Position numbers and translations under genes: made by a program. Below, piece by piece: positions 29,823 through 54,876 of a DNA stretch of 64,000 nucleotides. Source of the stretch: an uncultured virus (IMG/VR IMGVR_UViG_3300042450_001700) (lineage: Duplodnaviria; Heunggongvirae; Uroviricota; Caudoviricetes). The stretch's first letter is position 1. Every line of letters starts with the position of its first letter. The notes beneath the pieces are model-generated. The model saw only the letters and a program-made list of their open reading frames with translations, searched no databases and was not told the origin of the DNA. The stretch lies in IMG/VR virus record IMGVR_UViG_3300042450_001700; one strand, given 5' to 3'.

Positions 29823-29825
29823 CCT

Positions 29826-30602: not shown

Positions 30603-30605
30603 CCC

Positions 30606-30646
30606 CAAAAACTAGAACGAGAGCCGACCGTTTTGGTCGGCTCTCG
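30606..30646 (-). terminator. Cassette terminator
   Basis: GAGAGCCGACC-AAAAC-GGTCGGCTCTC hairpin then GTTCTAGTTTTT; repeated at ~31641-31682, 32686-32728 and 33646-33684. Confidence 0.75.
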
Positions 30647-30657
30647 TTCTCGGCTCG

Positions 30658-31635: not shown

Positions 31636-31693
31636 GGATCCAAAAACTAGAACGAGAGCCGACCGTTTTGGTCGGCTCTCGCTCTCGCTCGTT

Positions 31694-31960
31694 CTAGCCT
31701 AGTTGATCCTCTCGTTTTGGCAGTAGTTGGAGTTCTTCCCGATCTCCGGCGAGAGCGTCACAACATTCGCACAAGTTGCGGCTGAATGATCCCGAGAACC
31801 AATCCGAAGCCGGAACCAGATCAAAATCCTTGCTTAGTTCTTCGATCCCTTTTTGGCATGCAATCGAATCGGCTTCGCTCATTCCCGAGTCATCGCCATC
31901 AGCGATCATTTGGAGGCAGTTGAGGCAAACTCGGATGGTGATGATGTCTGACAGCTTCAT
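31694..31960 (-). CDS. Cassette gene 2, acidic Zn-binding-like (88 aa)
   Basis: VCLNC...FS...CECC...GDR motif. Confidence 0.75.
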   Translation of the reverse strand: MKLSDIITIRVCLNCLQMIADGDDSGMSEADSIACQKGIEELSKDFDLVPASDWFSGSFSRNLCECCDALAGDREELQLLPKREDQLG

Positions 31961-32146
31961 TTTTTTCTCTCATTCCCGAGCGGCTCGTGCCGCTCGTGTT
32001 GTTGGTGTGACTACATCAAAGCAAACATTTTGACTATACGCAATAGCAAAATGCGAGATTCTTTTTCTGACCGGGGTTTTGCCGCTAGTTCTAGGGGTTT
32101 TCACGCCAAAAGAAATATTTTGGAATACGTCCAAAACGGACGTTTT

Positions 32147-32685
32147 GCCGCTCTCGGCTCTCTTGTGCCGCTCGTGTTCTCGTGGTTCTCGCTCTCTCGT
32201 TCTCTCGGCTCGTGTGGCGCTCGTGTGGTCGGCTCATGGCGCTCTCGCTCGTGGTTCGTCCTAGTGCCGCTCTCGTGGCTCGTGGCGCTCGTGTGTGGCT
32301 CTCTCGTGGTTCTCGTGGCGCTCTCGTGTGGCGCTCGTTCTCATGCCGCTCTCGTGGCTCTCGTGTGGCTCGTGGTTCGTGCCGCTCGTGGTTCTCGGCT
32401 CTCACCCAGCAGCGCGCTCGTGTGGCTCGTGTGGTGCCGCTCGTGTTCGTTCGTGGTTCGTGGTCGGCGCTCGTGTTCTCTGTTCGCTCTCGTGGCTCGT
32501 GTGGCGCTCTCGTGGCGCTCATGGTGCCGCTCTCGTTCGTGGTCGGCTCATGTGGCTCTCTCGTGGCTCGTGGTTGCTCGTTCGTGGTTGCTCTCGGCTC
32601 ATGGCGCTCTCGTGTTCGTTCGTGCCGCTCTCGGCTCTCTCGTGGCTCTCACCCAGCGCTCGTGGTGCCGCTCTCGGCTCGTGCC
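32147..32685. repeat. Adenine-free low-complexity tract 3
   Basis: Same unit vocabulary. Confidence 0.9.
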
Positions 32686-32736
32686 AAAAACGGCAACAAG
32701 CGCCGACCGTTTTGGTCGGCGCTCGTTGCTCGTTTT

Positions 32737-33021
32737 CTAGAACGCTTGGAACAGAATCCCGTCGCAAAATTCGACTGCAAAAGTCATATCGTTGAGAGCG
32801 TCAAGCGAGTCGAAATTTTCGCCGTAGTTCTCGTTGATCTCTTCCAAGTCTGCCGCAAACATCCATTCTTGATCGAATGCGATTGGATCGAATTCAACCC
32901 CTTGGCCTTCTTCTTCTGCCGCTTCGATAAGCTCAAACAGTGCGTAGGATGCGTTGATCGGCCAGTTGCAAAGTGTGCGCATTGTTTGGGCAAACGTGCA
33001 GGCTGTCAGTAGTTCGTACAT
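32737..33021 (-). CDS. Cassette gene 3, very acidic protein (94 aa)
   Basis: SYALFELIE...EFDPIAFDQEW...LDALNDMT; D/E-rich. Confidence 0.75.
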   Translation of the reverse strand: MYELLTACTFAQTMRTLCNWPINASYALFELIEAAEEEGQGVEFDPIAFDQEWMFAADLEEINENYGENFDSLDALNDMTFAVEFCDGILFQAF

Positions 33022-33208
33022 TTTCTTTTCTCATTTCCCGAGCAGTTGGTGCCGCTCGTGTTGTTGGTGTGACTACATCAAAGCAAAGATTTGAAAGATA
33101 CGCAATAGCAAAACACGAGATTCTTTTTTCGACCGGGGTTTTCGCCCTAGAACTAGCGGGTTTTGCACCAAAAGAAATATTTTGGAATCGCTCCAAAACG
33201 GCAGTTTT

Positions 33209-33645
33209 CGCGCTCTCGCTCGTTCTCTCGTGTTGCTCGTTCTCGGCTCTCGGCTCATGGTTCTCTCGGCTCTCGTGTGGTGCCGCTCTCGCTCTCGGCT
33301 CTCGCTCTCGGCTCGTGTGCCGCTCTCGCCCAGCAGCGCGCTCGTGTGCCGCTCTCGTGTGGTTCGTGGTCGGCTCTCGGCTCTCGCTCATGGTTGCTCT
33401 CGTGTGCCGCTCGTGTTCGTGGCAGATACCCAGCGGCGCGTGCCGCTCTCGTGGCTCGTGTTTGCTCTCGGCTCATGCCGCTCTCGTGGTTGCTCTCTCG
33501 TGGCTCTCTCGGCTCGTGGTTGCTCTCTCGCTCGTGCCGCTCATGGTCGGCTCGTGGTGCCGCTCTCGGCTCTCGTGGTCGGCTCTCGTGCCGCTCTCGT
33601 TCTCGTGGCTCTCCCAGCCGCTCGTGGCGCTCGTGTGGCGCTCGC
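33209..33645. repeat. Adenine-free low-complexity tract 4
   Basis: Same unit vocabulary. Confidence 0.9.
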
Positions 33646-33698
33646 AAAAACGAGAATGAGCGCCGACCTTTTTGGTCGGCGCTCGTGGCTCGTGTGGT

Positions 33699-33998
33699 TC
33701 AGTCGTATTCAACCTCACCCCATTGATTTGTTCGTGAATGACAGAACTCTTCAACATAGTAAGAGTTGAGATCAACGTATTTTGGTGCCGCTTCAGCCGC
33801 TTCAGCCGCTTCAGCGATTTCCATGACTAGCGCCCTAGTCGAAACTGACGGAACCGATTTGCCGCCAGCGTTTTTGGCGATTTCAGTCCACTCAGAATCG
33901 GTCAAGTACTCGGGGTTTTTGCCGATAGTGGCGATTTCTGTCGCCATCTTCTTAGCAAGCTTTGCCCGATTTGCTAGGTGTGCCGGATGTGCTTTCAT
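33699..33998 (-). CDS. Cassette gene 4, HPxHL-family copy 3
   Basis: MKAHPAHLANR...W..IA..AG...PS..T. Confidence 0.75.
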   Translation of the reverse strand: MKAHPAHLANRAKLAKKMATEIATIGKNPEYLTDSEWTEIAKNAGGKSVPSVSTRALVMEIAEAAEAAEAAPKYVDLNSYYVEEFCHSRTNQWGEVEYD

Positions 33999-34180
33999 TC
34001 TGCTCTCTCTTCCCGAGCCGCTCGGCTCGTGTTGTTGGTGTGACTACATCAAAGCAAAGATTCCACACATAAGCAATAGCAAAATGCGAGATTCTTTTTG
34101 GAACAGCGGTTTTACCCCTAGAACTAGGGGGTTTTGCACCAAAAGAAATCTTTTGGAATCAGCCCAAAACGGTCGTTTTG

Positions 34181-34528
34181 GCTCTCGGCTCGCTCTCTCA
34201 TGGTCGGCTCTCGGCTCGTGTTCTCATGGCTCTCTCATGGCGCTCTCATGGTTCTCTCTCTCTTGTGCCGCTCTCGCTCTCTCATGCCGCTCTCGTGGTC
34301 GGCTCGTGGCTCGTGGCGCTCTCTCTTGCTCTCGGCTCTCGTGTGGCGCTCTCGTGGCTCGTGTGGTTGCTCTCTGTTCTCGTGGCGCTCTCTGTTCTCT
34401 CTCGGCTCGTGTTCTCTCTCTCATGGCGCGCTCGTTCTCGTGGTCGGCTCGTGGTCGGCTCGTGGTTGCTCTCGCTCTCTCGCTCTCGGCTCTCTCATGG
34501 TCGGCTCGTGTGGCGCTCTCGGCTCATG
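34181..34528. repeat. Adenine-free low-complexity tract 5
   Basis: Same unit vocabulary. Confidence 0.9.
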
Positions 34529-34614
34529 CAAAACATCTGCCGAACTCGTGACAGAAAACCGCCACTAGCGCGCGCGGTCGATTCCAAAACGACCAACACG
34601 AAAACGCCCGCGAG

Positions 34615-34846
34615 TTATCCCCAACCACACCAACCAGACGAGCCAAAAACAGCCAAAAGTTTTCCACAGGTTTTCCACAGGTTTTCCACAACTTTTTCCA
34701 CAGAACACCCGTTCCCCAAACGAATGTTCGATCAAAGTTATCCACAAGTTATCCACAGGTTTATCCACAGAACACCTGTTCGATCCGGTTATCCCCAGAG
34801 TTATCCACAGGTTTATCCACAGGTTTATCCACAGCCTGTGGATAAC
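34615..34846 (+). repeat. DnaA-box array with LexA-like boxes (right)
   Basis: TTATCCACA x6 plus one inverted copy (34837), TTTTCCACA x4; GAAC-N4-GTTC at 34703 and 34770. Confidence 0.85.
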
Positions 34847-35068
34847 CCAGCCCAGCCCAGCCCAGCCCCAAGCGGGCGGCGGCGGGCGGGCGGCAGCGGC
34901 GGCCCAGCCAGCGCGAGTTTTCCGGGCGGCGGGCGGCGGCGGCCAGCGCGAATTTCCGGGCGGGTGGGCGGCCCAGTCCGGCCCAGTCCGGCCCCGGATA
35001 AACGGCGGCCCAGCCAGCGCGAGTTTTCTAGGGGGCGGCGGGGCGGCGGGCCAGCGCGAATTTTCTAA
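34847..35068. repeat. GC-rich repeat block
   Basis: CCCAG tandem repeats, GGGC/GGC runs and four CCAGCGCGA(G/A)TTT units. Confidence 0.8.
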
Positions 35069-35074
35069 TTCGGA

Positions 35075-39320: not shown

Positions 39321-40595
39321 TCAGTACGGCACCTCTTCATCCCAATGGTCTTTCGGTTGTTGCCATCCCGAGTCTAGTTCCCAAACACCTTTCCAAGGCC
39401 ACGGTGTGGAACGCTCAATCACATCAGGCCAATCATTCTCCAGACGGTCGCCACGCCAACGCCCAACCTGCATGATCTCATTGCCATCTTCTTTCGATTC
39501 CAGCTTCAACCCGATCTCAGGCCACCGCAACCACAGGCTCGAACCATACGGCATCAAGTCACGAGTACCGCCTGACCCTTTCGGTGCGTGATGCTCAAGG
39601 ATCAGCCCGAACCCGTAACGGACACGCAGATCGTCAAACACAGACATCACCTCAGAAGAAGCCTGCTCATCGGATTCTCGTGCTTCCACCCGGTACGCCT
39701 TGTAGATCGGCCCCAAGCAAACGAGTGTGGGGCGCACATGGGCGATCACAGCTTCCAGTTCAGACCTGTCACGCCTTGACCGCAGATTCACACCACCGGG
39801 CCGGTGCCATAGCCATGCTCTATCAGGATCGTATTCTTCAGCAACCGAACCAACTTGTGTTCTGATCGGATTACAAACGTCGATAATCGAATCATCAGGA
39901 TTCTCAAGATCAACAATCAGCGTCCTACAAGGCGGTATCGGCGTGAACCGCAAAGGATGAATCCCCTGCGCAGCAGCAATACCCAACTGCCGCAGCAGAA
40001 CCGTCTTACCGATCCCCTCCTGAGCAACAACCATCACCCGCCACCCGACACGCATCAAACCCGGAATCACCCAAGCAGGACGCTCCGAAACAGGCCGATC
40101 CAAGAACCCGTCAATCGTCCACACATCCCCCGGCACCTCAACCACATCCGACTTATGAATATCCAGCACCGCAGCATTCAACATGTCACCAAGCTCAGAT
40201 GGATCACCGTCCTGCCCGTAAGACCGTTCCCCTATTTCCTTGCAAGCGCTAATCAGCTTCCTGTACGCAGCGCACTTCACAACCCTTGTCGCATACGCAG
40301 ACACGTTTGACACGAACCCAGCGTTCGCCACCAATGACATAATCCCCGCAGCACCCCCATAAGCGCCTTCCCCCTCAGACAGCGTGAGCGCCCCCGTAAG
40401 CGTCGTAGCGTCCACAGGCTCCCCACGCCCATACATCCCCGCAATCGTCGCATACAGCACCCTCAGACGAGGCGTGTAGAGGTCTTCAGCGGAACACAGC
40501 GGCAATACCTCACCGATAGCCTCGTTATTCAAGATCATCGCACCAACAAGCGCTTCCTCAGCCTGCTCGTCATACGGCGGCGATTGTTCCTTCAT
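39321..40595 (-). CDS. Replicative helicase (DnaB N-terminal domain plus RecA-like/AAA_25 ATPase)
   Basis: PPYDEQAEEALVGAM N-domain; Walker A EGIGKT; LILEHH..K and YGSS motifs. Confidence 0.85.
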   Translation of the reverse strand: MKEQSPPYDEQAEEALVGAMILNNEAIGEVLPLCSAEDLYTPRLRVLYATIAGMYGRGEPVDATTLTGALTLSEGEGAYGGAAGIMSLVANAGFVSNVSAYATRVVKCAAYRKLISACKEIGERSYGQDGDPSELGDMLNAAVLDIHKSDVVEVPGDVWTIDGFLDRPVSERPAWVIPGLMRVGWRVMVVAQEGIGKTVLLRQLGIAAAQGIHPLRFTPIPPCRTLIVDLENPDDSIIDVCNPIRTQVGSVAEEYDPDRAWLWHRPGGVNLRSRRDRSELEAVIAHVRPTLVCLGPIYKAYRVEARESDEQASSEVMSVFDDLRVRYGFGLILEHHAPKGSGGTRDLMPYGSSLWLRWPEIGLKLESKEDGNEIMQVGRWRGDRLENDWPDVIERSTPWPWKGVWELDSGWQQPKDHWDEEVPY

Positions 40596-41029
40596 GCTTC
40601 CAACTCCTTCAACCCGGACAACTTGCCCTGAACCAGCGCTTCATACGAACCCTTGAACCGTGATTGCCAACCAAACATCCCCGCAGACAAACCAGCACAC
40701 GACTCAATGACCAGATCATGCACGACAGGACGGACGGGAACATGCCCCGAACCATTCACAAACCGCATCTGCTCCCGATAAGCCAACCAGCGCTCGGCAC
40801 CAGCCAACGCCGCAGCTTCATCCGGCGCTCCAGTAGCAGCACGACACACAGCAGCCACAGACGGACGGAACTCCTCAGTCCTCAACATTGCCTGAACACC
40901 CATATTGGTTGGCCCAAACGGAAGACCCCTCAAACACTCCACATAGATCAACGCCATCTCAGGAGGGAACTTCTGCGACCACCCAAACTCCAACAACCGG
41001 ACAACCTGCCCTGCCTCACCAAGGTTCAT
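40592..41029 (-). CDS. Putative helicase loader/inhibitor (G39P-like)
   Basis: Position between initiator and helicase; FRPSVA motif. Confidence 0.5.
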   Translation of the reverse strand: MNLGEAGQVVRLLEFGWSQKFPPEMALIYVECLRGLPFGPTNMGVQAMLRTEEFRPSVAAVCRAATGAPDEAAALAGAERWLAYREQMRFVNGSGHVPVRPVVHDLVIESCAGLSAGMFGWQSRFKGSYEALVQGKLSGLKELEA

Positions 41030-41973
41030 CCCTGCTCCTGAGCGTACAAAGCCATCACCTGATCCGTAGCCGACATCTTCCCGCGTTCCCCTCCAGCCTC
41101 AAAGATGTCCCTAAACCGCTCAACCCGCTCACCATCCCTGATCGCAACAAGCAGATCATCAAACTTCTTCCCATCAGGGTTATCCCCTGTATGCCACGCA
41201 GACAACGCAATCCCCCGTGCAGCAGCCACCAAGTCCTCCTCGGTGTAACCCTCGCGCAAACGGGCAGCAACAGCAGACCTCCGTTTCGCGTTCAACTTCA
41301 CTTTCCCCGGTGCGCGCCCAGTCGCCAGCACCCACGCTTCCATCACCCGCTCCGCCGTCCCCGCGTTTTTCGTTATCTGCCCTGCGTCAACGAGTTGAAG
41401 TTCAGAACGAGGCGGTAAAGAAACGGATTCCGTTTCCGCGTTTTCTGTTTCGTTGACATAAGTCTTTATAGTCTTTTTATAGTCTTGACTCTTAGTACTG
41501 ATAATAGGGCCTGAAAAACCGGAACCCGTTTCTCCGGCTCCGGTTATCCGGCGACGGGTTTCCAGTCCCCGGTCAATATGACTATCAGATAAGTCGTCGT
41601 CTGTTTCGACCAGTGGCCGCTCCCGAACCACAGCTTCATTCACCCAACGCCCATCCGGGCCACGATACTTTTCACGCGTGATATAGCCAGCTTCTTCAAG
41701 CTCCGCTAACGCAGCACGAACAGCATCACGACCCTCCTTGCATCGTTTACTGATCTCTATTGAGTTGATCCGCCAACCATCAGGCTTGTCCAAAAGCCAC
41801 ACGAGCAGCCCAGTGGCACGCAACGACAAGGCTTCATCGTTGATAGTCCGTGAGTCAATGACTGTGAACTGTTTGCGGTGTTCAACTCTGATCGTCACTT
41901 CAGTCCTTCCCTGCCGGACCCGAAGTGTGCAACCTTGACCAAGTGCTGTATGCTTGGACTCAGGAACTGACAC
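41026..41973 (-). CDS. Replication initiator-like protein with N-terminal HTH (start may be GTG 41898)
   Basis: FTVI...LSLRATGLLVWLL..PDGW...EGRDAVR.AL.ELE.AGY; C-terminal ARLREGYT..DL domain. Confidence 0.75.
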   Translation of the reverse strand: MSVPESKHTALGQGCTLRVRQGRTEVTIRVEHRKQFTVIDSRTINDEALSLRATGLLVWLLDKPDGWRINSIEISKRCKEGRDAVRAALAELEEAGYITREKYRGPDGRWVNEAVVRERPLVETDDDLSDSHIDRGLETRRRITGAGETGSGFSGPIISTKSQDYKKTIKTYVNETENAETESVSLPPRSELQLVDAGQITKNAGTAERVMEAWVLATGRAPGKVKLNAKRRSAVAARLREGYTEEDLVAAARGIALSAWHTGDNPDGKKFDDLLVAIRDGERVERFRDIFEAGGERGKMSATDQVMALYAQEQG

Positions 41974-42103
41974 GCCAAATGGGTATGGCGGAGGTGTCTT
42001 AGAAGAGTCGGGCGAGTACTAATCGTCCGGCTTCTTCGCGTATTGGGCTACCGACCCCATGAGTGTTTTGGACCCGGTAGCGGCAAGTGTACCAGATGGG
42101 TGT

Positions 42104-42466
42104 TCAGATTTCTTTCTCCACATAAACCACTCTGCCGTCAATGATGACGATGCCTTCTGGCAATATCGCATGATCCAGTATCGCCCCACGCAGATCAGCT
42201 CCGAATAGGCTTGCTCCGAATAGGTGTGCGTTCGTGAGGTTCGCTCTGCGTAGGTCGGCTCTGCGTAGGTCGGCGTTATGCAGGTTTGCGCAGATGAGGT
42301 CGGCTCCGATGAGGTTCGATCCGAATAGGTCGGCGTTTGTCAGGTTCGCTCCGAACAGAACGGCTCCCATTAGGTTTGTGTCGGATAGGTCTGCCCCGTA
42401 GAGGTTCACTCCGGTTAGGTCGGCTCGTTCCATGTTGCGGACTTCGTGTCCGATGATTGTGGTCAT
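42104..42466 (-). CDS. Pentapeptide repeat protein
   Basis: A(D/N)Lxx repeats throughout. Confidence 0.9.
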   Translation of the reverse strand: MTTIIGHEVRNMERADLTGVNLYGADLSDTNLMGAVLFGANLTNADLFGSNLIGADLICANLHNADLRRADLRRANLTNAHLFGASLFGADLRGAILDHAILPEGIVIIDGRVVYVEKEI

Positions 42467-42555
42467 CCTTCGACCCATATTCTCCAGCAGAGCATTCCTA
42501 CGCTTGCGATGTTTCCTACGATTGCGATTGCTATGTGAATCTCGGTCTGTGTCAT
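42463..42555 (-). CDS. Small single-TM peptide (30 aa, leaderless)
   Basis: TTGATT-N16-TATACT-N6-ATG; MTQTEIHIAIAIVGNIASVGMLCWRIWVEG. Confidence 0.6.
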   Translation of the reverse strand: MTQTEIHIAIAIVGNIASVGMLCWRIWVEG

Positions 42556-42656
42556 ACCCCTAGTATAGTCATATGAACTACAGAATCAAGTCAATATCAA
42601 ACAAATATCAAGATTTCTTTCAGCACCAAACACCACACAACGGCTACCCTAAACAT

Positions 42657-44228
42657 GTGGAACCACTCGTAGTAATCCCATCGGAACTACTTGCACTCGC
42701 AACAGACCACGAACGCGAGCAATACCGCCTATACCTAATCGACGCAGCAGTCACCACCGACGACTGGGAAACATGGCTACTCGGAATGGCCCCCGGCTAC
42801 GCATCAGCCCCATTCGGTGACCACCACAAACAATTCTGGAACTGGGCATGGGAAGTAGAAACAGGTGAACGACCCCGACCGTTCGTCGCTATCTGGCCCC
42901 GAGGCGGCGCAAAGAGTACCAGCGCCGAGATGTGCGTCGTCGCTCTCGGCGCACGACAGAAACGCCACTACTGCCTATACGTCAGCGAAACACAAGATCA
43001 GGCAGACGACCACGTTGCCAACATCGCATCACTACTCGAAGACACCGAAATCGGATTCGCATACCCCGAACTAGGCGAACGAATGATGGGTAAGTTCGGA
43101 TCAGCAAAAGGTTGGCGGCGCAACCGAATCCGAACCGGAACCGGGTTCACCGTTGACGCTGTAGGACTTGACTCAGCATCACGAGGCATCAAACTCGAAA
43201 ACCTGCGACCCGACCTAATGGTCTTCGATGACATCGACAGCGAATCCGACGGGCCATCAGCCACAGACAAAAAGATCCGAACCATCACCCGCAAACTTCT
43301 CCCAGCGGGATCAAACGCTTGCGCTGTTATCGCCATCCAGAACAAGGTCCACGACAACTCCATCTTCGCACGACTCGCAGACGGACGAGCAGACTTTCTC
43401 CGTGACCGAATTGTGTCCGGGCCAATCCCATCAGTATGGAACCTTGAATGGGTAGAACAAGAAGGCTTGTTCAACATCGTCACAGGGCAAGCGGCATGGG
43501 AAGGCCAGCCACTCGAATCGTCACAAGCGCTCCTCAACGACATCGGACTAACAGCGTTCCTCGCAGAGTGCCAACACGCGACAGTCACGATGACCGGCGG
43601 GATGTTCGACCACATCAACTGGCCGAACCTTCATGTCACCGAAGCAGAACTACCAGTTATGAAACGCGTAGTCGTCTGGTTGGACCCTGCTGTCACCTCA
43701 AACGACCAATCAGACTGCCAAGGCATCCAATGCGATGGGCTGGGTTCCGACGGTTTGATCTACCGTCTTTGGTCATGGGAGGGGCGCACCACACCACTTG
43801 ACGCTGTGATGCGTGGAATCAGAATCGCTCTTCAATGGAACGCCGACACGCTCGGAGTTGAATCCGACCAAGGCGGCGATACATGGCAAACGGTTTACCA
43901 TCAGGCTTGCGAGAACTTGCGTGACGCAGGGGAACTTGAAGGATCAGCACCACGGTTCGCTTCAGCGAAAGCAGGCGCAGGGCATGGATCGAAGATGGCT
44001 CGTGCGCAACGGATGCTTGTCGATTACGAACGGAACCAGATCAGGCATCTCCTTGGCACACACCAAGTGTTAGAACTTGGACTCATGCGTTTCCCTAAGA
44101 TCAAACCATACGATCTTGTTGACGCAGCGTACTGGGCGTGGGCGGACATCTCGAAGAAGACGAACAGGTCGAAGTCTCGTATCGGGTCTGCGGCTAACTC
44201 AACTATCGGTGCGTTCAACTTCAACTAA
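42657..44228 (+). CDS. terL: Terminase large subunit
   Basis: WPRGGAKST Walker A, RPDLMVFDDID Walker B, WLDPA and DLVDA nuclease motifs; probable leaderless GTG 42657. Confidence 0.9.
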   Translation: MEPLVVIPSELLALATDHEREQYRLYLIDAAVTTDDWETWLLGMAPGYASAPFGDHHKQFWNWAWEVETGERPRPFVAIWPRGGAKSTSAEMCVVALGARQKRHYCLYVSETQDQADDHVANIASLLEDTEIGFAYPELGERMMGKFGSAKGWRRNRIRTGTGFTVDAVGLDSASRGIKLENLRPDLMVFDDIDSESDGPSATDKKIRTITRKLLPAGSNACAVIAIQNKVHDNSIFARLADGRADFLRDRIVSGPIPSVWNLEWVEQEGLFNIVTGQAAWEGQPLESSQALLNDIGLTAFLAECQHATVTMTGGMFDHINWPNLHVTEAELPVMKRVVVWLDPAVTSNDQSDCQGIQCDGLGSDGLIYRLWSWEGRTTPLDAVMRGIRIALQWNADTLGVESDQGGDTWQTVYHQACENLRDAGELEGSAPRFASAKAGAGHGSKMARAQRMLVDYERNQIRHLLGTHQVLELGLMRFPKIKPYDLVDAAYWAWADISKKTNRSKSRIGSAANSTIGAFNFN

Positions 44229-44263
44229 AAATGCAAGAAGCCCCTCCGTTGTGGAGGGGCTGA
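44227..44263 (-). terminator. Intrinsic terminator between terL and ncRNA C
   Basis: AGCCCCTCC-N5-GGAGGGGCT hairpin followed by TCTTGCATTTT on the minus strand. Confidence 0.75.
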
Positions 44264-45007
44264 AGCCATCTTGCTGACTAACCGAGAAGGCAATACGTCC
44301 TTCTGTCGGCATCGGTTGATACCGCCAAATTTTTGCACCATTGGGGGTGCCTGCAACCGCCCTTGCAGGTGGGTTCCTATCTTCTGTCACCCGAGGTCTA
44401 CAACCCTTGGAACACCGGAAGATTCGTTCAGCGGCGGGACTTTGTTTCAGGCGATATTCCCTGTGCTGCTTTTTGCCTGTACTGCTTGTTGATCGCAGAA
44501 CCGTTGAGTTAGCAGGAAGAGCGGCGGGAGAGATGCACCAACAACGCGCCCATCTTCGCTTCACATCAGAAGCTCGTTACCTAGCCGGGAGGGGAGAGAT
44601 GCACCAACAACGCTCCACCGGGTAGGGAATGGCTAACTGGCGGGAAGTATATCTTCCCGCTAACTCAACGGTCCTACGAATCAAGTTCTTAGAAGATGCT
44701 CTTGGACCGGCTACTTGCTTTCGTTCTTACTACTCCACGGATTGTGCGCACGCACCGCTTCACCTCAGAACTAGTTGCTTTCACCGTTCTCCGCATTCAC
44801 TCGCGCTATGTCAACATCCATCCACCACCTTCATAAGCACATCTCTGTGTGCCGTAGGGCGCTTCACTTGGCGATCAGCCCGGTACTTCTGCGGTTCCAA
44901 GTTCATCATCTAAGAACTTGATTCCTGTACTTGAGAGTCTTTGGTGTGCGGACCCTAGCCGCCATGCTCCCCGGTCGTTCCGGTTCTTTAGGTTGTATTG
45001 CCTTACC
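44229..45007 (-). ncRNA. Large structured ncRNA candidate C (~780 nt)
   Basis: Promoter TTGACA-N17-TATCTT at 45014-45042; 5'/3' stem 44995-45004/44287-44296; perfect 16-bp stem 44678-44693/44909-44924; stem 44498-44520/44652-44674. Confidence 0.75.
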
Positions 45008-45077
45008 CCCATAAAGATAGTCGATGCGACTACACATGTCAAGTCAATAATCAAGATTGTTTGATATTTCTTTTCGG

Positions 45078-45981
45078 CACCAACCCCAGCCTTCACGACT
45101 GGCACTGAATGACTGGTCAAGCTCCATTGGATGCCACACGCCCATTTCACCGTCAAGCTCAACGGTCCGGTAGGTCAACTTCCGGTGTGGACTCACCCTT
45201 CTGCTCTCCGCCAGTCGGCGGTGTTGCTCAAACTGCACCTGCTTTCTCTAGTTGGAATGATCTAAACGAATGTGTGGGGAATCCGGTTTTCCGGGCTACA
45301 GTCCAGCGGCGGTCTCTCCCTTGCGCACGACACGCGGGCTAGGTGCTTGTCTGCGGAATACCGGCCTAACCGGACTCCCCTTGAATCTTGAGTTGACGCT
45401 TGGATCGTTTGGGAGTGACCCGACGAACTCCGCATATCTCATCAAGATTCAGTACTTGACCGTTTCGCAATGAACAGCATTTCTGCTGTCGCCTAATGGC
45501 CGTCCGGTCAAGATCGCTTGGCATTGAATGCCTTATAGGTTACTCACGCTCCGGGTAATTAGTCCGTTTGATTAGCGTAGGGCGGTATGGATCGGTGTCA
45601 GCTAAAGACTTCAGTGTTTATCACCCTTCCAGTTTCGATCCGCAGCGTTCGAGGAGAACTCGTAAACCCCGGAACCATCTTGGTTTCCGCACTGTCGTAG
45701 CTGCTGTTCAGGTACCTAACTCAGGTTCCTACTGCCAGTCGCCGCTGCCGACAGTTTCCGACTTGCGGACATCTGCTGAACTTTGACTGGTGCTGCTAAT
45801 TGCGTGAGCGACCTATAAGACGCTCATTGCTTTCTTGAGAGCTAAGAGTCTGTTGAAGGTTTGTCACGTTGTTACCGGTTTGGAATGTCCCGTTCTTTGC
45901 GTGGGGGCCTTGCTGATCTCTTAGCCGCTCAAGCTTGTCTCTGTTTTCAAGTTGCTGTTGTGAGGCTGTTGCTCCCCCACA
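45078..45981 (-). ncRNA. Large structured ncRNA candidate D (~900 nt)
   Basis: Promoter TTGCGG-N17-TACTGT at 45988-46016; 5' TGTGTGGGG pairs with 45271-45279; many internal stems; no credible ORF. Confidence 0.65.
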
Positions 45982-46047
45982 CACAAGACAGTAGTCGATA
46001 CGACTACAGTCCGCAAGTCGAAACAGAAGATTGTTTGATATTTCTTT

Positions 46048-46599
46048 TGGTTGGTCAGTGAAACCGATGTTCTGAATAAGAGCTGCAAGTTTCTATCCCT
46101 GTGACGCAACATCGGGCTGCCTTGCTCCCCGACCGAATACGCTTCGGTGATTACGCTCTTGACGACGCTTTCACTTGACTCTGTGTGCCTGTCTGTCTCC
46201 AGACGATTCCACTGACCAACCACTCAAGTTGCTGCGGAGGTGCCGTACTAGGGATGTGTTGGGAGAGCAAGGCTTACGTCTTTCGACTACTTGGTCACCT
46301 CAATCGTCTTGGGTCCGATACCGCAAGTTTCAACTTGAGTCATTCTAGTTACTGTTGAGGAAGCCGTACTGAGGATGTCTTAGGAGAGGAAGGCTTACAC
46401 CCGAGGGCTACTTCTTGCACTTCAATCGTCTTCTGGTATCAAACAGAATCTAACTAGCACTCGCTGTTTCTGTTGCTGAGTGTGCAACCGTCACATTTCC
46501 TTGAGGTGGTGTGTCACCCGGAATCCGCTACACGCTTTGTGCGTCTTGCTGCGATTCGCCCCCGGTTGTGTCTCCGGTTCGTACTGCTCACTTCCTTAT
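46048..46599 (-). ncRNA. Large structured ncRNA candidate E (~550 nt)
   Basis: Class II promoter at 46607-46629; duplicated ~77-nt domain; stem GGTTGGTCAGTG/CACTGACCAACC at the 3' end. Confidence 0.7.
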
Positions 46600-46746
46600 G
46601 TAGATAAAGATACTACAGGTGTCTGACATTATGCGAATCCAAATGGTGTGACTCTTGTCACACGCCAAATCGGAGCCGCCAGCACACCCAGCCGACACGC
46701 GACAAAGGGACCGGAGCTACCCGGTCCCCTCATCACCAACAACAAC

Positions 46747-47736
46747 TCACAAGCCGTTACGAGCAGACTCAGCGAACACCGCCTGAGTCACCTTCTGGTC
46801 ATCAAGGTCAATCGCACCCGACAGGAAGTCAGTCATCGTGCGACCAAGACGAGAAGTTGAACCAGCAGTACCGTTCGCACGGAACGGACGCTCGTGCTGA
46901 CGGTAGGTGTTGAACGCCTGCACAACTCCCCATCCGGTTCCACGGAAGTCACCGACACGCTCATCGTTGCGATAGATGTTGGACACCGACTCCACACGGT
47001 TCTCCCAACGAGTACGAGCAGCCTCGGTTGCGGACTCAGGTGGCATCGGAGCCAAGCGGTTCACGATCCGGTAGAACTCGGTGTCGGTCACCGAAAGGTT
47101 GATTAGCGTGTTGACTTCCTCGTTGAACGACTCAGCCTGCTTCCACATCAGACCGAGAGTGTTGCGAGCGGTCGTGAAGTTCATCGACGAGTTGAGCGTG
47201 TGACGCAACTTGAACACGTTGTCGCTTTTGCGTCGGAGAGCGCCGATCTGGTTTGAGCAGATGAAGCGGAACATTCCCATCCGGTATGAAGTCGCAAGCG
47301 AACCATCGTGCGAGGATGCGAGTGTGAGTGTTGGTGCAACGTCACCCTCACCGGCTTCCAAGCATGGTGCCTGAACCTGAACCCATCCGACCGCACCGTT
47401 CTTCAGCAGGCCCGCACCCGAAACCTGAAGGTCGGTGTCGGACGCATCCAAGAGTGTGAACAGGTTGTCCACGAGTACGTCGCTGAACTGGTGAAGTCCG
47501 TGTGACTTGGACACCGTGTTGAGAACCATGCCCGTGTCGGTTCGGCGGATGGCTTGCTTGTTCTCAAGCGCCACCATCGAATCGGAACCCGAGTCGTGTG
47601 TGTAGAGCGGGGTGTACTCCACAGTGAAGTTGAACAGGTCACGCACCCGCTCAAACGGAACAGGTCCGGCGTGCTTCTCGTTTGCGTGGACGCTTCCACC
47701 ATTGCCGAGGATTGTGATGTCTGTGTTGTTTGCCAT
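46747..47736 (-). CDS. DUF932 family protein
   Basis: AGLLKNG, LASSHDGS, RFICSNQ and RHT motifs; GT.WG..QA...Y..H. Confidence 0.85.
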   Translation of the reverse strand: MANNTDITILGNGGSVHANEKHAGPVPFERVRDLFNFTVEYTPLYTHDSGSDSMVALENKQAIRRTDTGMVLNTVSKSHGLHQFSDVLVDNLFTLLDASDTDLQVSGAGLLKNGAVGWVQVQAPCLEAGEGDVAPTLTLASSHDGSLATSYRMGMFRFICSNQIGALRRKSDNVFKLRHTLNSSMNFTTARNTLGLMWKQAESFNEEVNTLINLSVTDTEFYRIVNRLAPMPPESATEAARTRWENRVESVSNIYRNDERVGDFRGTGWGVVQAFNTYRQHERPFRANGTAGSTSRLGRTMTDFLSGAIDLDDQKVTQAVFAESARNGL

Positions 47737-48008
47737 TGTGATTGCCTCCGTGTTAGTTGTTGCTGTTGGTTGTTGTACGACTCACTATATAGATCGGTGT
47801 GGACGCTAAATGACTTTCCACTAAACTTTTCTTTGGATTCGTTTACAAACCTAAACCCTCAACCACTACTTCACCCCCGCACCACCAACCCCGACGCTGG
47901 GCAAACCCTCAACCTCAACCACAGGTTTACAGTTAGACACTCGGAACCGGAACGCCGCCCAGTACGTCGAAGGTTTGCGTCCACACTGCTCTATAGACTG
48001 TTGAACAT

Positions 48009-48245
48009 ATGACTACTGAACAAGAAGTGAGCAGCAACTACACGCCTGCACAGCAATGGCTTGCAGCACTAGACCTTATGGTCAAGGCCACCGAGGAACT
48101 GGGCGTGAACCATGCCGAGTATCCGCGGGCGGCGGTTGAGTGTGGGCCGGAGATGGTTCGTGAGATTGACCGTGTGATTCGGATTGCTCAACGGTTGACT
48201 GATGGTTGTGATGTTGAGTTTCAGCGGAAGCGTTTGAGCGTCTAA
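48009..48245 (+). CDS. Hypothetical protein
   Basis: CGTCCA-N10-TAGACT promoter just upstream. Confidence 0.6.
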   Translation: MTTEQEVSSNYTPAQQWLAALDLMVKATEELGVNHAEYPRAAVECGPEMVREIDRVIRIAQRLTDGCDVEFQRKRLSV

Positions 48246-48313
48246 AAAGAAATATCAAACAATCTTGGTTATTGACTTGATAATGTCCCACAGGTGCAGT
48301 AACTTGATCTACA

Positions 48314-48606
48314 TGACATCGACCGAGATCATCCAGACAATCAACAACAACTACTGCAACCGTGCGACCATCGCAGCGGATGCCGCTGCGAACAACACCG
48401 ACGAGGCATTCGCCATCCGAGCGATTGCAACGCGCCGGACAAACGCACAGGAGACAGTGTTCGCACTGTTCATCGCAATGAGCGGCGGAACTTGCACCCG
48501 AGCGATTCACTCGGATCGCATCGACCGGGAGATCGCAGCTTGCGCCGGATTCACGCAAGCGGAGATTGACTTCGCTCGTCGGGCCAACGCCGAGTGCGTC
48601 AACTAA
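48314..48606 (+). CDS. Hypothetical protein (leaderless, MTST start)
   Basis: TGTCCC-N10-TAACTT-N7-ATG. Confidence 0.65.
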
Positions 48607-48689
48607 AACCTCAAGCGGGTGTGGCACGACAAAGTGTCACACCCACCCATTACAATCACAACCAAGTTCACAACCAAGGAGCAAGCAAG

Positions 48690-48929
48690 ATGACAACGAT
48701 CAAAGTAAACACACCACGGTTCACAGTGACCACAGAGGTCAGCCGCCACTTCGATATTGAGTCAAACGACATTCACGTTTGGTTCTCCAACTGCGAGTAC
48801 GGGGTCTTCGACACCAAAGCCGCAGCGGAGCGCAGCGCACCTGCACGAGCGAAGGTTGAGCGTGCAATCGACATCACGATCAACGGCAACACTTCACTTT
48901 TGATTCCAGTAACCGAGGTGATCTTCTAA
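48690..48929 (+). CDS. Hypothetical protein, paralog of 27808-28038
   Basis: ESNDI.VW...EYGVF.T.A.AE..AP shared; AAGGAG SD. Confidence 0.7.
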   Translation: MTTIKVNTPRFTVTTEVSRHFDIESNDIHVWFSNCEYGVFDTKAAAERSAPARAKVERAIDITINGNTSLLIPVTEVIF

Positions 48930-49153
48930 TGGAAACAGCAGCATATTCAGCAACAGCAACAGCAACAGCAACATTGCATTTCACAGCGAGGGTTAGCGGC
49001 TCATCGTTCGCCGGTTTCGATGTGCCAATAGGCTACTTCGCCAATGCCGACCAAGCTACGCAGTACGCAGATCAGCTCTTTCCGTGCGGTATGCCCTACT
49101 CAGGGTCTAACGGGACACTTGATTTTGTGTTTCTCACAGCGGCAGCGGGCTGA
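48929..49153 (+). CDS. Hypothetical protein (tandem paralog a)
   Basis: HFTARVSGS...G.F.NA..A.Q.A.Q...GTL.FVFLTA. Confidence 0.7.
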   Translation: METAAYSATATATATLHFTARVSGSSFAGFDVPIGYFANADQATQYADQLFPCGMPYSGSNGTLDFVFLTAAAG

Positions 49154-49359
49154 TGGAACCCTCATACGGAATCTTCCCATCCGAACCAGCAGCAGTTCAC
49201 TTCACTGCGAGGGTCAGCGGTTCAGACATGCCGCTCGGTTTCTTCTCCAACGCCGCTGAAGCACAACAGTTCGCAGAGCAGTTCATCGGACGAGGCAACG
49301 CCGACGGCTACAATGTTGGGACACTTGAGTTTGTGTTCCTCACAGCAGGAGCATTCTGA
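49153..49359 (+). CDS. Hypothetical protein (tandem paralog b)
   Basis: Same motif as the preceding ORF. Confidence 0.7.
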   Translation: MEPSYGIFPSEPAAVHFTARVSGSDMPLGFFSNAAEAQQFAEQFIGRGNADGYNVGTLEFVFLTAGAF

Positions 49360-49688
49360 TGATGGTGAGAGACTGGAACATCGACACACTCCGGGAGGAG
49401 TGGAACAAGGTTGACGACCAACGCCTTGAAGCGATACGCGACGAGAACCTTGAAATGGAAATCATCGCGATGGCACAGCTAGACGTTTTGGAAGACCAGA
49501 TCGAAAGAAGGATGGCGAAGATGGAACAACAGGATCGCTCACGAGGTTTCATCACGTTCGACGGTCGCTACCAGTGGAACTATCGGAACGCTGACGGACC
49601 GATTACTAAGGGTGCTTCTGAGGGTTACGCGTCGCACGCCGAAGCAGCTATCGGTCTTGTCGCTTTCATCGAAAGCCTTGACGACTGA
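49359..49688 (+). CDS. Hypothetical protein
   Basis: Coupled ORF. Confidence 0.65.
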   Translation: MMVRDWNIDTLREEWNKVDDQRLEAIRDENLEMEIIAMAQLDVLEDQIERRMAKMEQQDRSRGFITFDGRYQWNYRNADGPITKGASEGYASHAEAAIGLVAFIESLDD

Positions 49689-49838
49689 TGGGTGTTGAAC
49701 GGTTGGCTCGTGAGATCGTTGCGAACTCGGATGGCAAGGTGTCGTGGGAGGAAGCTTTGCGTGAAGCGTGGTGGACCACAATGGCAGGCTGGGGCGAGAT
49801 CGAAAACCCTGAACCTGTAGTTGAGGTTGAGGGTTAGG

Positions 49839-50570
49839 GTGAACCACACGACTCATAACATCGACTGCATCAACCTGCCATCACTGGGACTTGAACCAGT
49901 CCAACTTGTTTACGCTGACCCACCGTTCAACACAGGCAGAGACTTCGGAGAATGGGCCGACAACCACTGGGCCACAACGAGCGATTACATCCGGTGGCTT
50001 ACCCCACGCCTTGAAGCGTGTTGGGAGCAGCTTTCGCCTAACGGCAATCTGGTCTTGCATTTGGATTGGCGGACAGCGCACAGAGCGAAGATCGCTTTGG
50101 ACGACATCGCTGGGGAGCAGAACTTCTTGAATGAGATTGTGTGGGCGTACCGTTCTGGCGGTGCGTCGAAGCGGCATCTGTCTAGGAAGCATGACACGTT
50201 GTTGTGGTATGCGAAGGGTGATGGTTACACGTTCAATCCGCAGCGTGTGCCGTATGCGCCGGGGACTGATGTGAGCAGGCCGGGGTTTCATCCTGATGGG
50301 AAGTTGATGACTGATGTGTGGGACATCTCTTTCATTTCGACTAGCTCGCATGAGCGCACTGGGTGGCCTACGCAGAAGCCGGTGACGTTGTTGTCTCGTG
50401 TGGTTGAGTTGTTTAGCAATCGGGGTGATGTTGTGTTGGACCCGTTTTGTGGTTCTGGTACGACTGGGGTTGCGGCGAAGCGGTTGGGGCGTGGTTCGGT
50501 GTTGTTGGATGTGAACCCGGATGCGACTGCGTTGGCGGGGGAGCGTGTTTGGGGTGAAAAAGAAATCTGA
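49839..50570 (+). CDS. N6-adenine/N4-cytosine DNA methyltransferase (beta class)
   Basis: DPPF, PTQKP and VLDPFCGSGTT motifs. Confidence 0.9.
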   Translation: MNHTTHNIDCINLPSLGLEPVQLVYADPPFNTGRDFGEWADNHWATTSDYIRWLTPRLEACWEQLSPNGNLVLHLDWRTAHRAKIALDDIAGEQNFLNEIVWAYRSGGASKRHLSRKHDTLLWYAKGDGYTFNPQRVPYAPGTDVSRPGFHPDGKLMTDVWDISFISTSSHERTGWPTQKPVTLLSRVVELFSNRGDVVLDPFCGSGTTGVAAKRLGRGSVLLDVNPDATALAGERVWGEKEI

Positions 50571-52640: not shown

Positions 52641-53312
52641 TTGGAGGTTGTTGTGTCGAATGTTGTTCCGCAGTTGCAGGGGTTGTGTGTTCCTGTTGAG
52701 GGGTTGAGAACGATGACTGGTAATCCGCGTCGGGGTGATGTGGATGCGGTGATGCGTTCGTTGGATGCTTTTGGTCAGCGGAAACCGATTGTTGCTCGTG
52801 AGAGTACGGGCGAGGTGATCGCTGGGAACCATACGTTTATGGCGGCGGTGAAGTTGGGTTGGTCTGAGATTGCGGTTGTGTGGGTTGATGATGATGATGC
52901 GACGGCTAAGGCGTTTGCGTTGGCTGATAATCGGACTGCCGAGTTGGGTGGTTATGATGATGAGTTGTTGGCGGGGATGATCGCTGAGGTGATGTCTGCT
53001 GACTTGGGGTTGTTGGCTGCGGCTTCGTATACGGCTGACGATTTGGATGCGTTGTTGGCGGATACTTTGCCTGTTGAGGAGTTGCCGGTTCCTGAGACTC
53101 GTAAGGCCCCGGTGAAGTTGGCTGAACGGTTTGTTGGTTTGCCTGTGAGTGTGTTGAACAGTCGTGAGGGTTGGTGGCAGGATCGGAAACGGGCGTGGAC
53201 TGATCTTGGGATTGAGTCTGAGTTGGGTCGTGATGGTAAACCGTTGACTTGGAATGTTGCTGTGCCGCAGGGTCACGGCCATCAGGCGACGGATATGGTG
53301 CAAAATGGTTGA
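52641..53312 (+). CDS. ParB/Srx domain protein carrying the N-terminal segment of a DNA methyltransferase
   Basis: NPRRG...IAGNHT...LADNRTAE; ends with LAERF..P.SVL..R.GWWQDRKRAW..LGI.SELGR. Confidence 0.8.
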   Translation: MEVVVSNVVPQLQGLCVPVEGLRTMTGNPRRGDVDAVMRSLDAFGQRKPIVARESTGEVIAGNHTFMAAVKLGWSEIAVVWVDDDDATAKAFALADNRTAELGGYDDELLAGMIAEVMSADLGLLAAASYTADDLDALLADTLPVEELPVPETRKAPVKLAERFVGLPVSVLNSREGWWQDRKRAWTDLGIESELGRDGKPLTWNVAVPQGHGHQATDMVQNG

Positions 53313-54876
53313 ACCTGTTGTTGAGGTTGAGGGTTACGGTGAGGGTTCAACTTCTTTGTTTGACCCGGTTTTGTGTGAACTGGTTTATAGGTGGTTTTGT
53401 CCACCGGGCGGTCAGGTGTTGGACCCGTTCGCCGGGGGTTCTGTTCGTGGGGTTGTTGCGTCGAAGTTGGGTCGGGAGTACACGGGGATTGACGTTCGCC
53501 CGGAGCAGGTTGAGGCGAACAGGTTGCAGGGTGAAAGGCTTTGCCGCGGGTTGTCGTTTGTGCCGGATGTCCCTGAGGATCACATGCCTGAGCTGACACC
53601 GGTTGAAACTCATGGTGACATCTGGTTGAAACGTGAGGATCATTATGTTTTTGGTGGGGTGAGGGGTGCGAAAGTTCGGACTTGTATGCTTCTGGTTGAG
53701 CGTGCGCGTGAACAAGGGGTTGGGGTTGTCACGGCTGGGTCACGGCAGTCGCCGCAGGTGAACTTTGTGGCTCAGATTGCAGCGGCGTTGGGTGTGAAGT
53801 GTCGGGCGCATGTGCCTTCTGGCGATTTGACACCGGAGCTTCTTGCGGCTCGTGGCGCTGGTTGCGAGTTGATTCAACATCAGGCGGGGTATAACACGGT
53901 GATCGTTGCGCGTGCGCGTGAGGATGCGTTGCAGTCTGGTTGGGTTGAGATTCCGTATGGGATGGAAGCGCCGGAGGCGGTTGAGTTTACGAAACCGCAG
54001 GTTGCGAATATCCCTGACGGGGTTCAGCGGATTGTGAACAGTGTCGGGTCAGGAATGACTCTTGCGGGCATCCTGTGGGGTCTAGTTGAGTCGGGGAGGG
54101 ATATTCCGGTAGTTGGTGTGTGTGTCGGTCATCCGCCGTTAGAACGCCTTGAGAGGCACGCACCACCGGGTTGGCAGGAAATGGTGACGATTGTGGACCA
54201 CCCGTCCGATTACCACGACGAGGCAGCGGTGACTGTGTTCCGTGGGGTGCAGTTGGACCCGTGGTACGAGGCGAAGTGCATTCCGACTTTGGAACCGGGT
54301 GACTTGTTATGGGTGAGCGCTATCCGACCGTCAGTTGTTCTCGCCGCAGCACCGTTACCCCAGTGGGTTGAGGGTGACGCTTCAGAGGTGGGCGAGTTGT
54401 GTCAAGGTTTAGAAGCCGATTTGTGGTTTTCTTGTCCGCCTTATGGTGATCTTGAAGTGTACTCGGATGATCCGCGTGATCTTTCAACGATGGATTACTC
54501 AACTTTTATTGAGTCATTCCGACAGATTGTTGATACGTCAACAAAACTGTTGAAGGACGACAGGTTCGCTGTTGTTGTTGTCGGTGACTTCCGTGGCCCC
54601 GACGGGAACTACCGCAACTTTGTTTCAGATACGATCAGCGCTTTCCAAGACGCAGGACTCAGCTTGTATAACGAGGCGATCCTTGTAACGAATCTTGCTT
54701 CACTGATTCTGCGTGTCGGTAAACAGTTTGATGTGTCCCGCAAGATGGGCAAGTCGCATCAGAATGTTCTTGTGTTCTTGAAGGGTGACGCACGCGCAGC
54801 GACACGCGCTTGCGGTCCGGTGCAGGCCGGTGATCTGACGGCTGAGGCCACGGAAAGCGTCCAACCGGAATCGTAG
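53305..54876 (+). CDS. DNA methyltransferase with inserted PLP-dependent (fold type II) domain
   Basis: TSLFDPVLCE...VLDPFAGGSVRG; insert LTPVE...LKRED...GAKVR...VGSGMTLAGI...DPWYEAK; then FSCPPY...K.HQNVLVF.KG. Confidence 0.85.
   Translation: MVEPVVEVEGYGEGSTSLFDPVLCELVYRWFCPPGGQVLDPFAGGSVRGVVASKLGREYTGIDVRPEQVEANRLQGERLCRGLSFVPDVPEDHMPELTPVETHGDIWLKREDHYVFGGVRGAKVRTCMLLVERAREQGVGVVTAGSRQSPQVNFVAQIAAALGVKCRAHVPSGDLTPELLAARGAGCELIQHQAGYNTVIVARAREDALQSGWVEIPYGMEAPEAVEFTKPQVANIPDGVQRIVNSVGSGMTLAGILWGLVESGRDIPVVGVCVGHPPLERLERHAPPGWQEMVTIVDHPSDYHDEAAVTVFRGVQLDPWYEAKCIPTLEPGDLLWVSAIRPSVVLAAAPLPQWVEGDASEVGELCQGLEADLWFSCPPYGDLEVYSDDPRDLSTMDYSTFIESFRQIVDTSTKLLKDDRFAVVVVGDFRGPDGNYRNFVSDTISAFQDAGLSLYNEAILVTNLASLILRVGKQFDVSRKMGKSHQNVLVFLKGDARAATRACGPVQAGDLTAEATESVQPES

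Follow-up and report, generated by a model that had tools for sequence, protein, structure and literature searches.

Between the large terminase gene and a DUF932 gene of an uncultured tailed phage, two similar sequences follow each other in a stretch that is poor in open reading frames. What kind of element do these repeats form, and what could the phage gain from carrying two of them? We analyzed them within the whole stretch of DNA at hand, which is 64,000 nucleotides long and is called the window below. The window comes from a tailed phage; portal, major head and minor tail proteins are encoded in it, and the same genome carries genes for a replication initiator and a DnaB-like helicase (Pfam, PHROGs); no tRNA was found in the window. 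The DNA sequencing runs in which the stretch occurs are metagenomes of lake water, and one IMG/VR fragment (G001) is identical to the window across 44230-46750. The large terminase gene terL (PHROG 38) occupies 42573-44228 on the plus strand, and the DUF932 gene (Pfam PF06067, E 1.3e-37) occupies 46747-47736 on the minus strand. The ORF-poor stretch between them is 2.5 kb long (44230-46747), and the repeats sit inside it. A terminator-like hairpin read from the sequence, GGGACCGG-GUAGC-UCCGGUCCC followed by UUUG (46700..46730, minus strand), appears to end the upstream DUF932 gene. Elsewhere in the phage, a 540-aa ORF at 53254-54876 (plus strand) joins the C-terminal portion of a DNA methylase domain (N6/N4) to a PLP-dependent enzyme domain (Pfam PALP), an unusual pairing for one ORF.

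The repeats are part of a noncoding unit of about 550 nt on the minus strand, from about 46600 to 46048, which we call RNA E. Its promoter-like region (46607..46635, minus strand) was located by alignment to a promoter motif that recurs in the phage. It has the -10 element TATCTT at 46612-46607 with a 17-nt spacer before it, the -35 element is degenerate (CGCATA), and the upstream A-rich element is deleted in this phage; a consensus promoter scan did not call it. Upstream of RNA E in the related loci L012, L013, L014 and L016, AAAGAAATAT and a better -35 element are both present. The RNA probably starts near 46600 (CAUAAGGAAG...).

The motif AAAGAAAT[AC]T occurs at 21 sites in the window against 1.7 expected, and none of 100 shuffles reached 21. 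When the sites were aligned by eye, 17 of the 21 showed a sigma-70-like promoter, that is, an A-rich upstream element, a -35 of TTGAC or TTGAT, a 17-nt spacer, which often contains the operator-like palindrome GTAGTCG-N3-CGACTAC, and a -10 that is TATCTT-like or TATAGT. Example sites are 5136+, 12267-, 26736+, 27719+, 42620-, 45073-, 46047- and 48246+. The promoter at 45989..46047 on the minus strand (repeat D1) belongs to the same family and starts the next noncoding unit; it consists of AAAGAAATAT, TTGCGG, a 17-nt spacer with the palindrome GTAGTCG-TAT-CGACTAC, and TACTGT. A second promoter subclass, TTGATAATGTCA...TATCTACATGACATCGAC, was seen at 14503-, 17587-, 48246+ and 50559+. It suggests leaderless mRNAs, as its transcripts would start at or beside ATG; the 5' start of RNA E is that of this subclass, with ATA replacing ATG. 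The leader GGGGGUAAGGCAAU would begin three transcripts (26736+, 27719+ and 45073-); it stands before a ribosome-binding site and ATG at 27719 and heads an ORF-poor unit at 45073.

RNA E is followed downstream by two more units (44230-45990, minus strand) that are poor in ORFs and promoter-driven, with starts near 45985 and 45005. They contain the long-range inverted repeats I1 (34 nt), I2 (28 nt) and I3 (29 nt) and end at a common terminator (44261-44239). Since the second of these units is found elsewhere in the genomes of L012, L015 and L016, the noncoding units are shuffled as modules. About 8 of the 64 kb of the window consists of promoter-driven noncoding units. At 44341-44913 (plus strand), one TAG codon lies between two in-phase frames of 94 aa each, which reading TAG as Q would join into 190 aa. 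Neither matches PHROGs, and they are probably due to chance, given the conserved RNA-like helices there. Another region of about 5.5 kb (29600-35070, plus strand) is strongly A-poor on the plus strand (9-16% A) and consists of degenerate short repeats in roughly 1-kb units, with GCTCTCG occurring 63 times and GCTCGTG 52 times within 3.9 kb. Four of these units (31134, 32109, 33171 and 34142) each open with the AAAGAAAT[AC]T motif and a hairpin, CCAAAACGG-N-CGTTTTGG. All plus-strand frames are open in this region only because stop codons need A, and the region may represent noncoding RNAs in an array or an array at the DNA level.

RNA E itself has the following parts on the minus strand. The 5' domain (46467..46600) has several small hairpins and is 93-97% identical in relatives; the only short frame in it is broken by a 2-nt deletion in L011. 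It is followed by two arms, c1 (46345..46457) and c2 (46222..46340), and by a 3' domain (46048..46222) whose 19-nt closing helix pairs 46222-46204 with 46066-46048. This helix is the inverted repeat I5, 89% complementary, and in L013 and L014 unrelated sequence takes the place of the 3' domain.

The original prediction described the two arms as a tandemly duplicated domain of about 77 nt. The duplication and its coordinates were borne out by several kinds of comparison. Positions 46432-46354 of c1 and 46310-46231 of c2 are direct repeats on the minus strand that are 75-76% alike. A repeat search returned 46242-46292 with 46363-46413 (51 nt, 76%) and 46296-46310 with 46418-46432 (15 nt, 93%), both at a spacing of 121-122 nt, and in blastn, run on about 90 kb of loci, c1 and c2 matched at 75% along 92 nt (E 1.7e-10 to 4.7e-9). 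With three c2 variants as its sole input, a covariance model scored c1 at 66.1 bits (E 1.7e-15) and at 66-69 bits in every relative, and in the 64-kb window it found nothing beyond the copies except a 12-bit fragment (E 0.86). The size given in the prediction was too small. That is, the unit that was duplicated is about 115-120 nt long, and each copy has its own closing stem.

The closing stem of c1 was obtained both by minimum free energy (MFE) folding and by RNAalifold, and the whole c1 unit is 96-99% identical in relatives. In this stem, P0a pairs 46457-46451 with 46351-46345, a 4-nt bulge (GAUU) follows, and P0b pairs 46446-46439 with 46358-46352; the strand CUAGUUA, bulge, CUGUUUGA thereby faces UCAACAG-UAACUAG. 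Alignments show a conserved 5' strand, S5 (AAGACGAUUGAAGUG, 46418..46432), and a conserved 3' strand, S3 (CUCUCCUAAGACAUCCUCAGUACGGC, 46363..46388). Between them lies a variable arm (46389..46414, from pair counts). In this arm, P2 is GAAG/CUUC (46414-46411 with 46392-46389), an internal loop places UA opposite GUAAGC, and P3 is GCC/GGU (46408-46406 with 46401-46399) with the loop CUCG, which is UCCG in L011, L012 and L016.

Arm c2 was obtained by MFE, centroid and RNAalifold predictions and has the same parts. P0a pairs 46340-46331 with 46231-46222, the 4-nt bulge is AAAC, and P0b pairs 46326-46322 with 46236-46232, so that ACUCAAGUUG, bulge, UUGCG faces CGCAG-CAACUUGAGU. S5 is AAGACGAUUGAGGUG (46296..46310) and S3 is CUCUCCCAACACAUCCCUAGUACGGC (46242..46267), again from alignments, the latter being followed by a tail, ACCUC (46241-46237). 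The variable arm (46268..46293) has P2 CAAG/CUUG, the loop UA opposite GUAAGC, and P3 GUC/GAC with the loop GAAA. An arm is thus a long, irregular hairpin, and from base to tip its order is P0a, 4-nt bulge and P0b, the S5/S3 core, P2, the asymmetric UA/GUAAGC loop, and a 3-bp P3 with a tetraloop. The consensus sequences AAGACGAUUGARGUG for S5 and CUCUCCYAASACAUCCYYAGUACGG for S3 are both almost invariant. The two closing stems share no sequence and have the same architecture, and we therefore conclude that a whole helix-closed arm was duplicated and that the stems have diverged since. The conserved joints and the variable hairpin seen in the prediction are also evident in the alignments. Its reading of the hairpin as CCC-UC-GGG needs correction: there are three base pairs (G-Y, C-G or U-A, and C-G) and a tetraloop, CUCG or GAAA.

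Is the pattern found in other phages? Eight IMG/VR contigs encode a close relative of the DUF932 protein. In seven of the eight loci, c1 and c2 lie downstream of the DUF932 gene, and two of these seven are identical to the window; at the eighth locus (L015) the contig ends 200 nt past the gene. This eighth contig carries two further, diverged copies of the arm, c3 and c4. Copy c3 (L015 2262-2181, 40 bits) lies within a clean insertion of about 210 nt in a different noncoding RNA, which is present without the insert in the window, L012 and L016; the insertion is bounded by its own stem of about 25 bp and by ACAAG microhomology. Copy c4 (G004 10134-10219, 40.5 bits) sits on a long stem in an RNA whose promoter and 5' end are those of RNA E and whose body differs, the 5' start TGTAGTATCTTTATCTACATAAGGAA being common to RNA E and the c4-bearing RNA of L259. 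That the arm is portable follows from c3 and c4, which a relative carries in noncoding RNAs other than RNA E. S5, S3, P2 and the closing stem are found in all four paralog types, and the GUAAGC loop and the position of P3 in three of the four; in c4 the P3 hairpin is placed elsewhere and the GUAAGC loop is not kept.

In L012, L013, L014 and L016, the DUF932 gene is 83.5-86.8% identical to that of the window at the DNA level, the 379-nt RNA E core is 96.3-97.9% identical, arm c1 97.6-99.2% and arm c2 95.1-100%. Such high identity could be due in part to recent recombination or mosaic exchange, not selection. The c2 arms of L013 and L014 have six changes, and all of them fall within the P3 hairpin, where GUC-GAAA-GAC has become GCC-UUCG-GGC with the pairing kept. 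Such hairpin swaps, together with the four paralogs, speak for constraint on the arms.

We then counted base pairs in an alignment of 14 rows, of which 9 are distinct; this alignment was fitted to the model and represents four independent paralog types. Among the nine distinct rows, 98% of the cells were paired, compared with 33-59% when the partners were slid by 1-3 columns. Two-sided changes were present in 6 of the 13 pairs, and none of 500 shuffles reached the covariation score. In P2, the pairs seen were G-C and C-G, and A-U and U-A, with a further A-U to U-A change in c4. In P3, they were G-C, G-U and A-U, and C-G and U-A. Closing stems of differing sequence form in all four arms. In a comparison of the flank duplexes with 500 shuffles, the numbers of shuffles that were as good were 0 for c3, 0 for c4, 33 for c2 and 137 for c1, for which the segment taken cut off part of the stem. 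The 91-nt cores and the c1 unit were no more stable than shuffles (z +0.8 to +1.7; c1 unit +1.4), and for the c2 unit the z-score was -1.5, with 13 of 200 shuffles folding equally well. Folding energy thus lends the fold little support, and this low stability fits a core that is rich in unpaired, conserved pyrimidines.

For the interior of the arm, two models compete. In Model A, GARGUG pairs with the tail after AGUACGG, and this pairing is perfect in c2 (GAGGUG/CACCUC); chance alone often produces a 6-bp run of this kind (in 1626 of 3000 shuffles), and the tail is missing from c3 when that copy is aligned through its homologous P0b strand. In Model B, ACGAUUG of S5 pairs with YAGUACG, the 3' end of S3. 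The 5' strand of c3 has GCGUA for GACGA, which gives a perfect 8-bp helix with UAGUACGC, and only 48 of 3000 shuffles did as well. Model B is lower in energy in c1 (-21.3 vs -15.3) and c3 (-70.7 vs -66.6), and Model A in c2 (-29.2 vs -25.9). In c4 there is an uncompensated change in both models, with C changed to A in the proposed S5/S3 helix. From their topology, it seems that Models A and B could coexist only through an implausible zero-linker pseudoknot. We inspected the arms by eye for a pseudoknot of AAGACGAUU with S3 beyond the nested S5/S3 helix and saw none. We also rejected AAUCGUCU (46208-46200) as a required partner of the c2 5' strand (repeat I4), since L013 and L014 lack it and still have the arms. 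UA/GUAAGC is reminiscent of the 11-nt tetraloop receptor, and UAGUACG is reminiscent of the sarcin-ricin loop; both fit poorly in register, and we make no claim from them.

On which strand is the arm an RNA? Read on the minus strand, the P3 loops are CUCG, UCCG, UUCG and GAAA. GAAA and UUCG/UCCG/CUCG are stable tetraloop classes. G-U pairs occur in P3 of c1, in P2 of c3 and c4, in P0b of c2 and as U8-G in S5/S3; these pairs would be A-C on the opposite strand. All four arms are co-oriented with, and downstream of, the phage promoter motif. The loop classes, the G-U pairs and the promoter orientation all point to the minus strand. As for transcription, contigs of an 85-95% identical relative in two sediment metatranscriptome runs of one study span the genes and RNA E at similar depth; contigs of RNA libraries carry no strand, ends or expression ranking. 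In two soil oligo-dT runs, short pieces of low depth were few in 40000-50000, and none of them fell at 45344-47347.

A repeat that codes for protein was rejected, as c1 and c2 differ by 1-nt indels and c1 has a plus-strand stop where c2 is open. Neither table 11 nor a reading of TAG as Q gives an ORF of >=110 aa on the arms. Under table 4 there is one plus-strand frame over the arms (46101-46457, 118 aa) with two TGA codons read through, and neither of these recodings opened anything convincing. Of the small ORFs in the region, 0 of 8 matched PHROGs. Two other candidates were also rejected. ToxI-like antitoxins are near-identical head-to-tail repeats of about 34-45 nt upstream of an endoribonuclease toxin gene; a type III antitoxin RNA of this kind does not fit units of about 120 nt that are 75% alike, with no adjacent ORF that has a family match. 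A diversity-generating retroelement pair, in which only adenines of one copy should differ, does not fit differences that include indels and all four bases in the alignments, and no reverse transcriptase was found among 12 proteins compared with Pfam and 18 with PHROGs.

The distribution of the arm was examined by several searches. A blastn search with 44230-46750 against phage and plasmid records gave no match. A strict S3 pattern in IMG/VR gave 8 stretches, all on the same eight contigs already known through DUF932. Two looser patterns gave 91 and at least 120 IMG/VR stretches. Among those listed, nhmmer reached E<1e-15 for loci of the same contigs only, and the next best, L155 (E 0.0055) and L079 (E 0.017), lack the rest of the motif by eye. 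In the JGI metagenomes, the S3 pattern gave 19 stretches, of which L025, L037 and L038 belong to the same clade and the other 16 have the pattern alone. In 185,579 species genomes, it gave three stretches, the best at 11.6 bits (E 0.87). A DUF932 profile scan added two loci, L274 and L275, which have no arm even with filters off (best 11.7 bits, E 0.1). The DUF932 of L274 is 66% identical, and no arm was present in the 5.2 kb downstream or in the 7.1 kb examined overall. The exact-pattern scans of IMG/VR, the JGI metagenomes and the species genomes therefore confine the arm to one phage clade. The motif is new and its distribution is narrow; full-text literature searches turned up no description of this RNA. 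The original prediction held that a lack of homologs with the same conserved and variable pattern would point to a neutral duplication. Homologs exist within one phage clade only, and four paralog types in that clade show the pattern.

Taken comprehensively, these results indicate that the arm is very probably a real, selected structured RNA module, although the evidence comes only from four paralog types in one clade of near-identical phages. The explanation that we favor overall, with a rough probability of 0.45, is a portable helix-closed arm with a docking surface, carried in a promoter-driven noncoding RNA. In this explanation, tandem helix-closed arms of about 115-120 nt on the minus strand would be presented within the RNA of about 550 nt. 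S5 may pair with the 3' end of S3 (ACGAUUG with YAGUACG), which would leave the pyrimidine-rich CUCUCCYAASA and the GUAAGC loop exposed. The exposed, conserved surface might then dock a partner acting in trans, most likely a protein and possibly an RNA; this docking-platform mechanism is a tentative proposal that builds on the predicted fold. An arm with such a docking surface would act as a tag, which phage RNAs may have gained by recombination, and its duplication would give two sites. There is also some small chance that the arm represents a new functional RNA class (aptamer, self-cleaving motif or protein tag) that was moved between noncoding RNAs by recombination.

We weighed this reading against several others. 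The arm might work by base pairing, the exposed C/U-rich seeds of S3 (CUCUCC, CAUCCY and the tail CACCUCC or CUUCCUC) pairing with purine-rich ribosome-binding sites or other RNAs, so that the RNA would serve as a regulator or a sponge. S3 is indeed G-poor, pyrimidine-rich and mostly unpaired in both predicted interior models, the motifs resemble the anti-Shine-Dalgarno sequence, and there are two arms with two or three such motifs each. The conservation, however, spans the whole 26-nt S3 as well as S5, which is more than short seeds need. A search of the window for 14-mer complements gave 18 against 6.7 expected and picked out no target; the best complements fall in the C/A-rich 29000-29400, under plus-strand ORFs, in the same sense as S3 on the plus strand. 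We regard the seed explanation as rather unlikely.

The original prediction likened the arm to an aptamer or ribozyme. The structured module stands, in view of the compensatory changes, the near-invariant joining strands and the minus-strand reading. The functional part finds no such support, for there is no downstream ORF, expression platform or clue to a ligand. A tandem ligand-binding aptamer of the riboswitch kind, which would switch between the S5/S3 helix and the helix of GARGUG with the 3' tail, would account for a conserved core between covarying helices, for the tandem arrangement, and for the use of the same strands in two competing pairings. Against it, the second helix cannot form in c3 when this copy is aligned by P0b homology, and Rfam shows no similarity. 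Rfam 15 gave no match in the whole window at gathering thresholds, and at E<=10 it gave four chance-level matches in 44000-47000, none of them on the arms, no match in 46215-46470, and three chance-level matches in the c3 insertion. A riboswitch is disfavored because no credible minus-strand ORF follows: the 100-aa frame at 45921-46223 crosses the next promoter, matches nothing in Pfam or PHROGs, and its region is unrelated sequence in L013 and L014. We regard the aptamer as quite unlikely. The arms do resemble tandem-aptamer riboswitches, such as the glycine riboswitch, in having adjacent homologous domains with a conserved core and variable hairpins. They differ from that type in the missing downstream gene, expression platform and family match, and in that each arm stands on its own long stem with no evident pairing between the domains.

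A new self-cleaving or processing module, inserted to cut or mature phage RNAs, is another reading to which we give little weight. The arm is small and closed by a helix, its core is invariant and its outer hairpins vary, and it is multi-copy and mobile in phage genomes, with four contexts. Small ribozymes are often multi-copy and mobile within phage genomes. In the features just named, the invariant core and helix-closed form included, the arm is like the hammerhead, twister, twister-sister, pistol and hatchet ribozymes, but no covariance model matches it, even at E<=10 on 256 nt. The expectation that it is not a hammerhead, twister or pistol thus held, with zero Rfam matches at E<=10 on the arms, and no known ribozyme family was matched. 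We recognized no cleavage-site signature, and the RNA-library contigs of the relative run uninterrupted through both arms, though contigs cannot show nicks.

It is equally improbable that the arms are structural filler or a neutral duplication, that is, a stable spacer whose identity comes from recent exchange among mosaic phages. The one-clade distribution and the visible shuffling of neighbouring modules among relatives agree with this idea. What it does not explain is that S5 and S3 are near-invariant in four diverged paralogs while stems and loops change with compensation, and that the six substitutions in c2 of L013 are limited to the hairpin. A DNA-level element, with protein-binding repeats for replication or packaging, would suit a place between terL and DUF932 with replication initiator and DnaB-like helicase genes 5-7 kb off, but it is highly improbable, as only RNA of one strand accounts for the compensatory changes, the G-U pairs and the tetraloop classes, the copies are embedded in promoter-driven units, and the repeats lie 120 nt apart and are only 75% alike.

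The RNA that carries the arms can also be compared with known phage RNAs. RNA E resembles GOLLD and ROOL in being phage-borne, in forming its own transcription unit, in its several domains and elaborate fold, in its orphan function, and in being conserved above the neighbouring genes. It differs from them in that it has no Rfam 15 match, is smaller (about 550 nt), occurs in a single lake-phage clade, and is built of modules, its arms and 3' domains being exchanged between relatives. Like phi29 pRNA, it is a phage-encoded structured noncoding RNA near a packaging gene. The pRNA serves as a docking piece for proteins and is, to our knowledge, restricted to phi29-like phages. RNA E is likened to pRNA in these general features; the present phage has an ordinary large terminase (PHROG 38), and the proximity of RNA E to terL may be coincidental.

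If the arm is a structural spacer, it is a minor curiosity, and its occurrence in one clade limits the reach of the finding. Structured RNAs carried by phages, GOLLD and ROOL being examples, belong to the most poorly understood of all RNAs. The arm is a small portable domain with clear boundaries, an invariant core, natural hairpin-swap variants and four natural contexts. If it proves to be a protein tag, or a new fold for catalysis or ligand binding, the known RNA classes would grow by one, and the arm might explain why this phage lineage keeps many noncoding transcription units.
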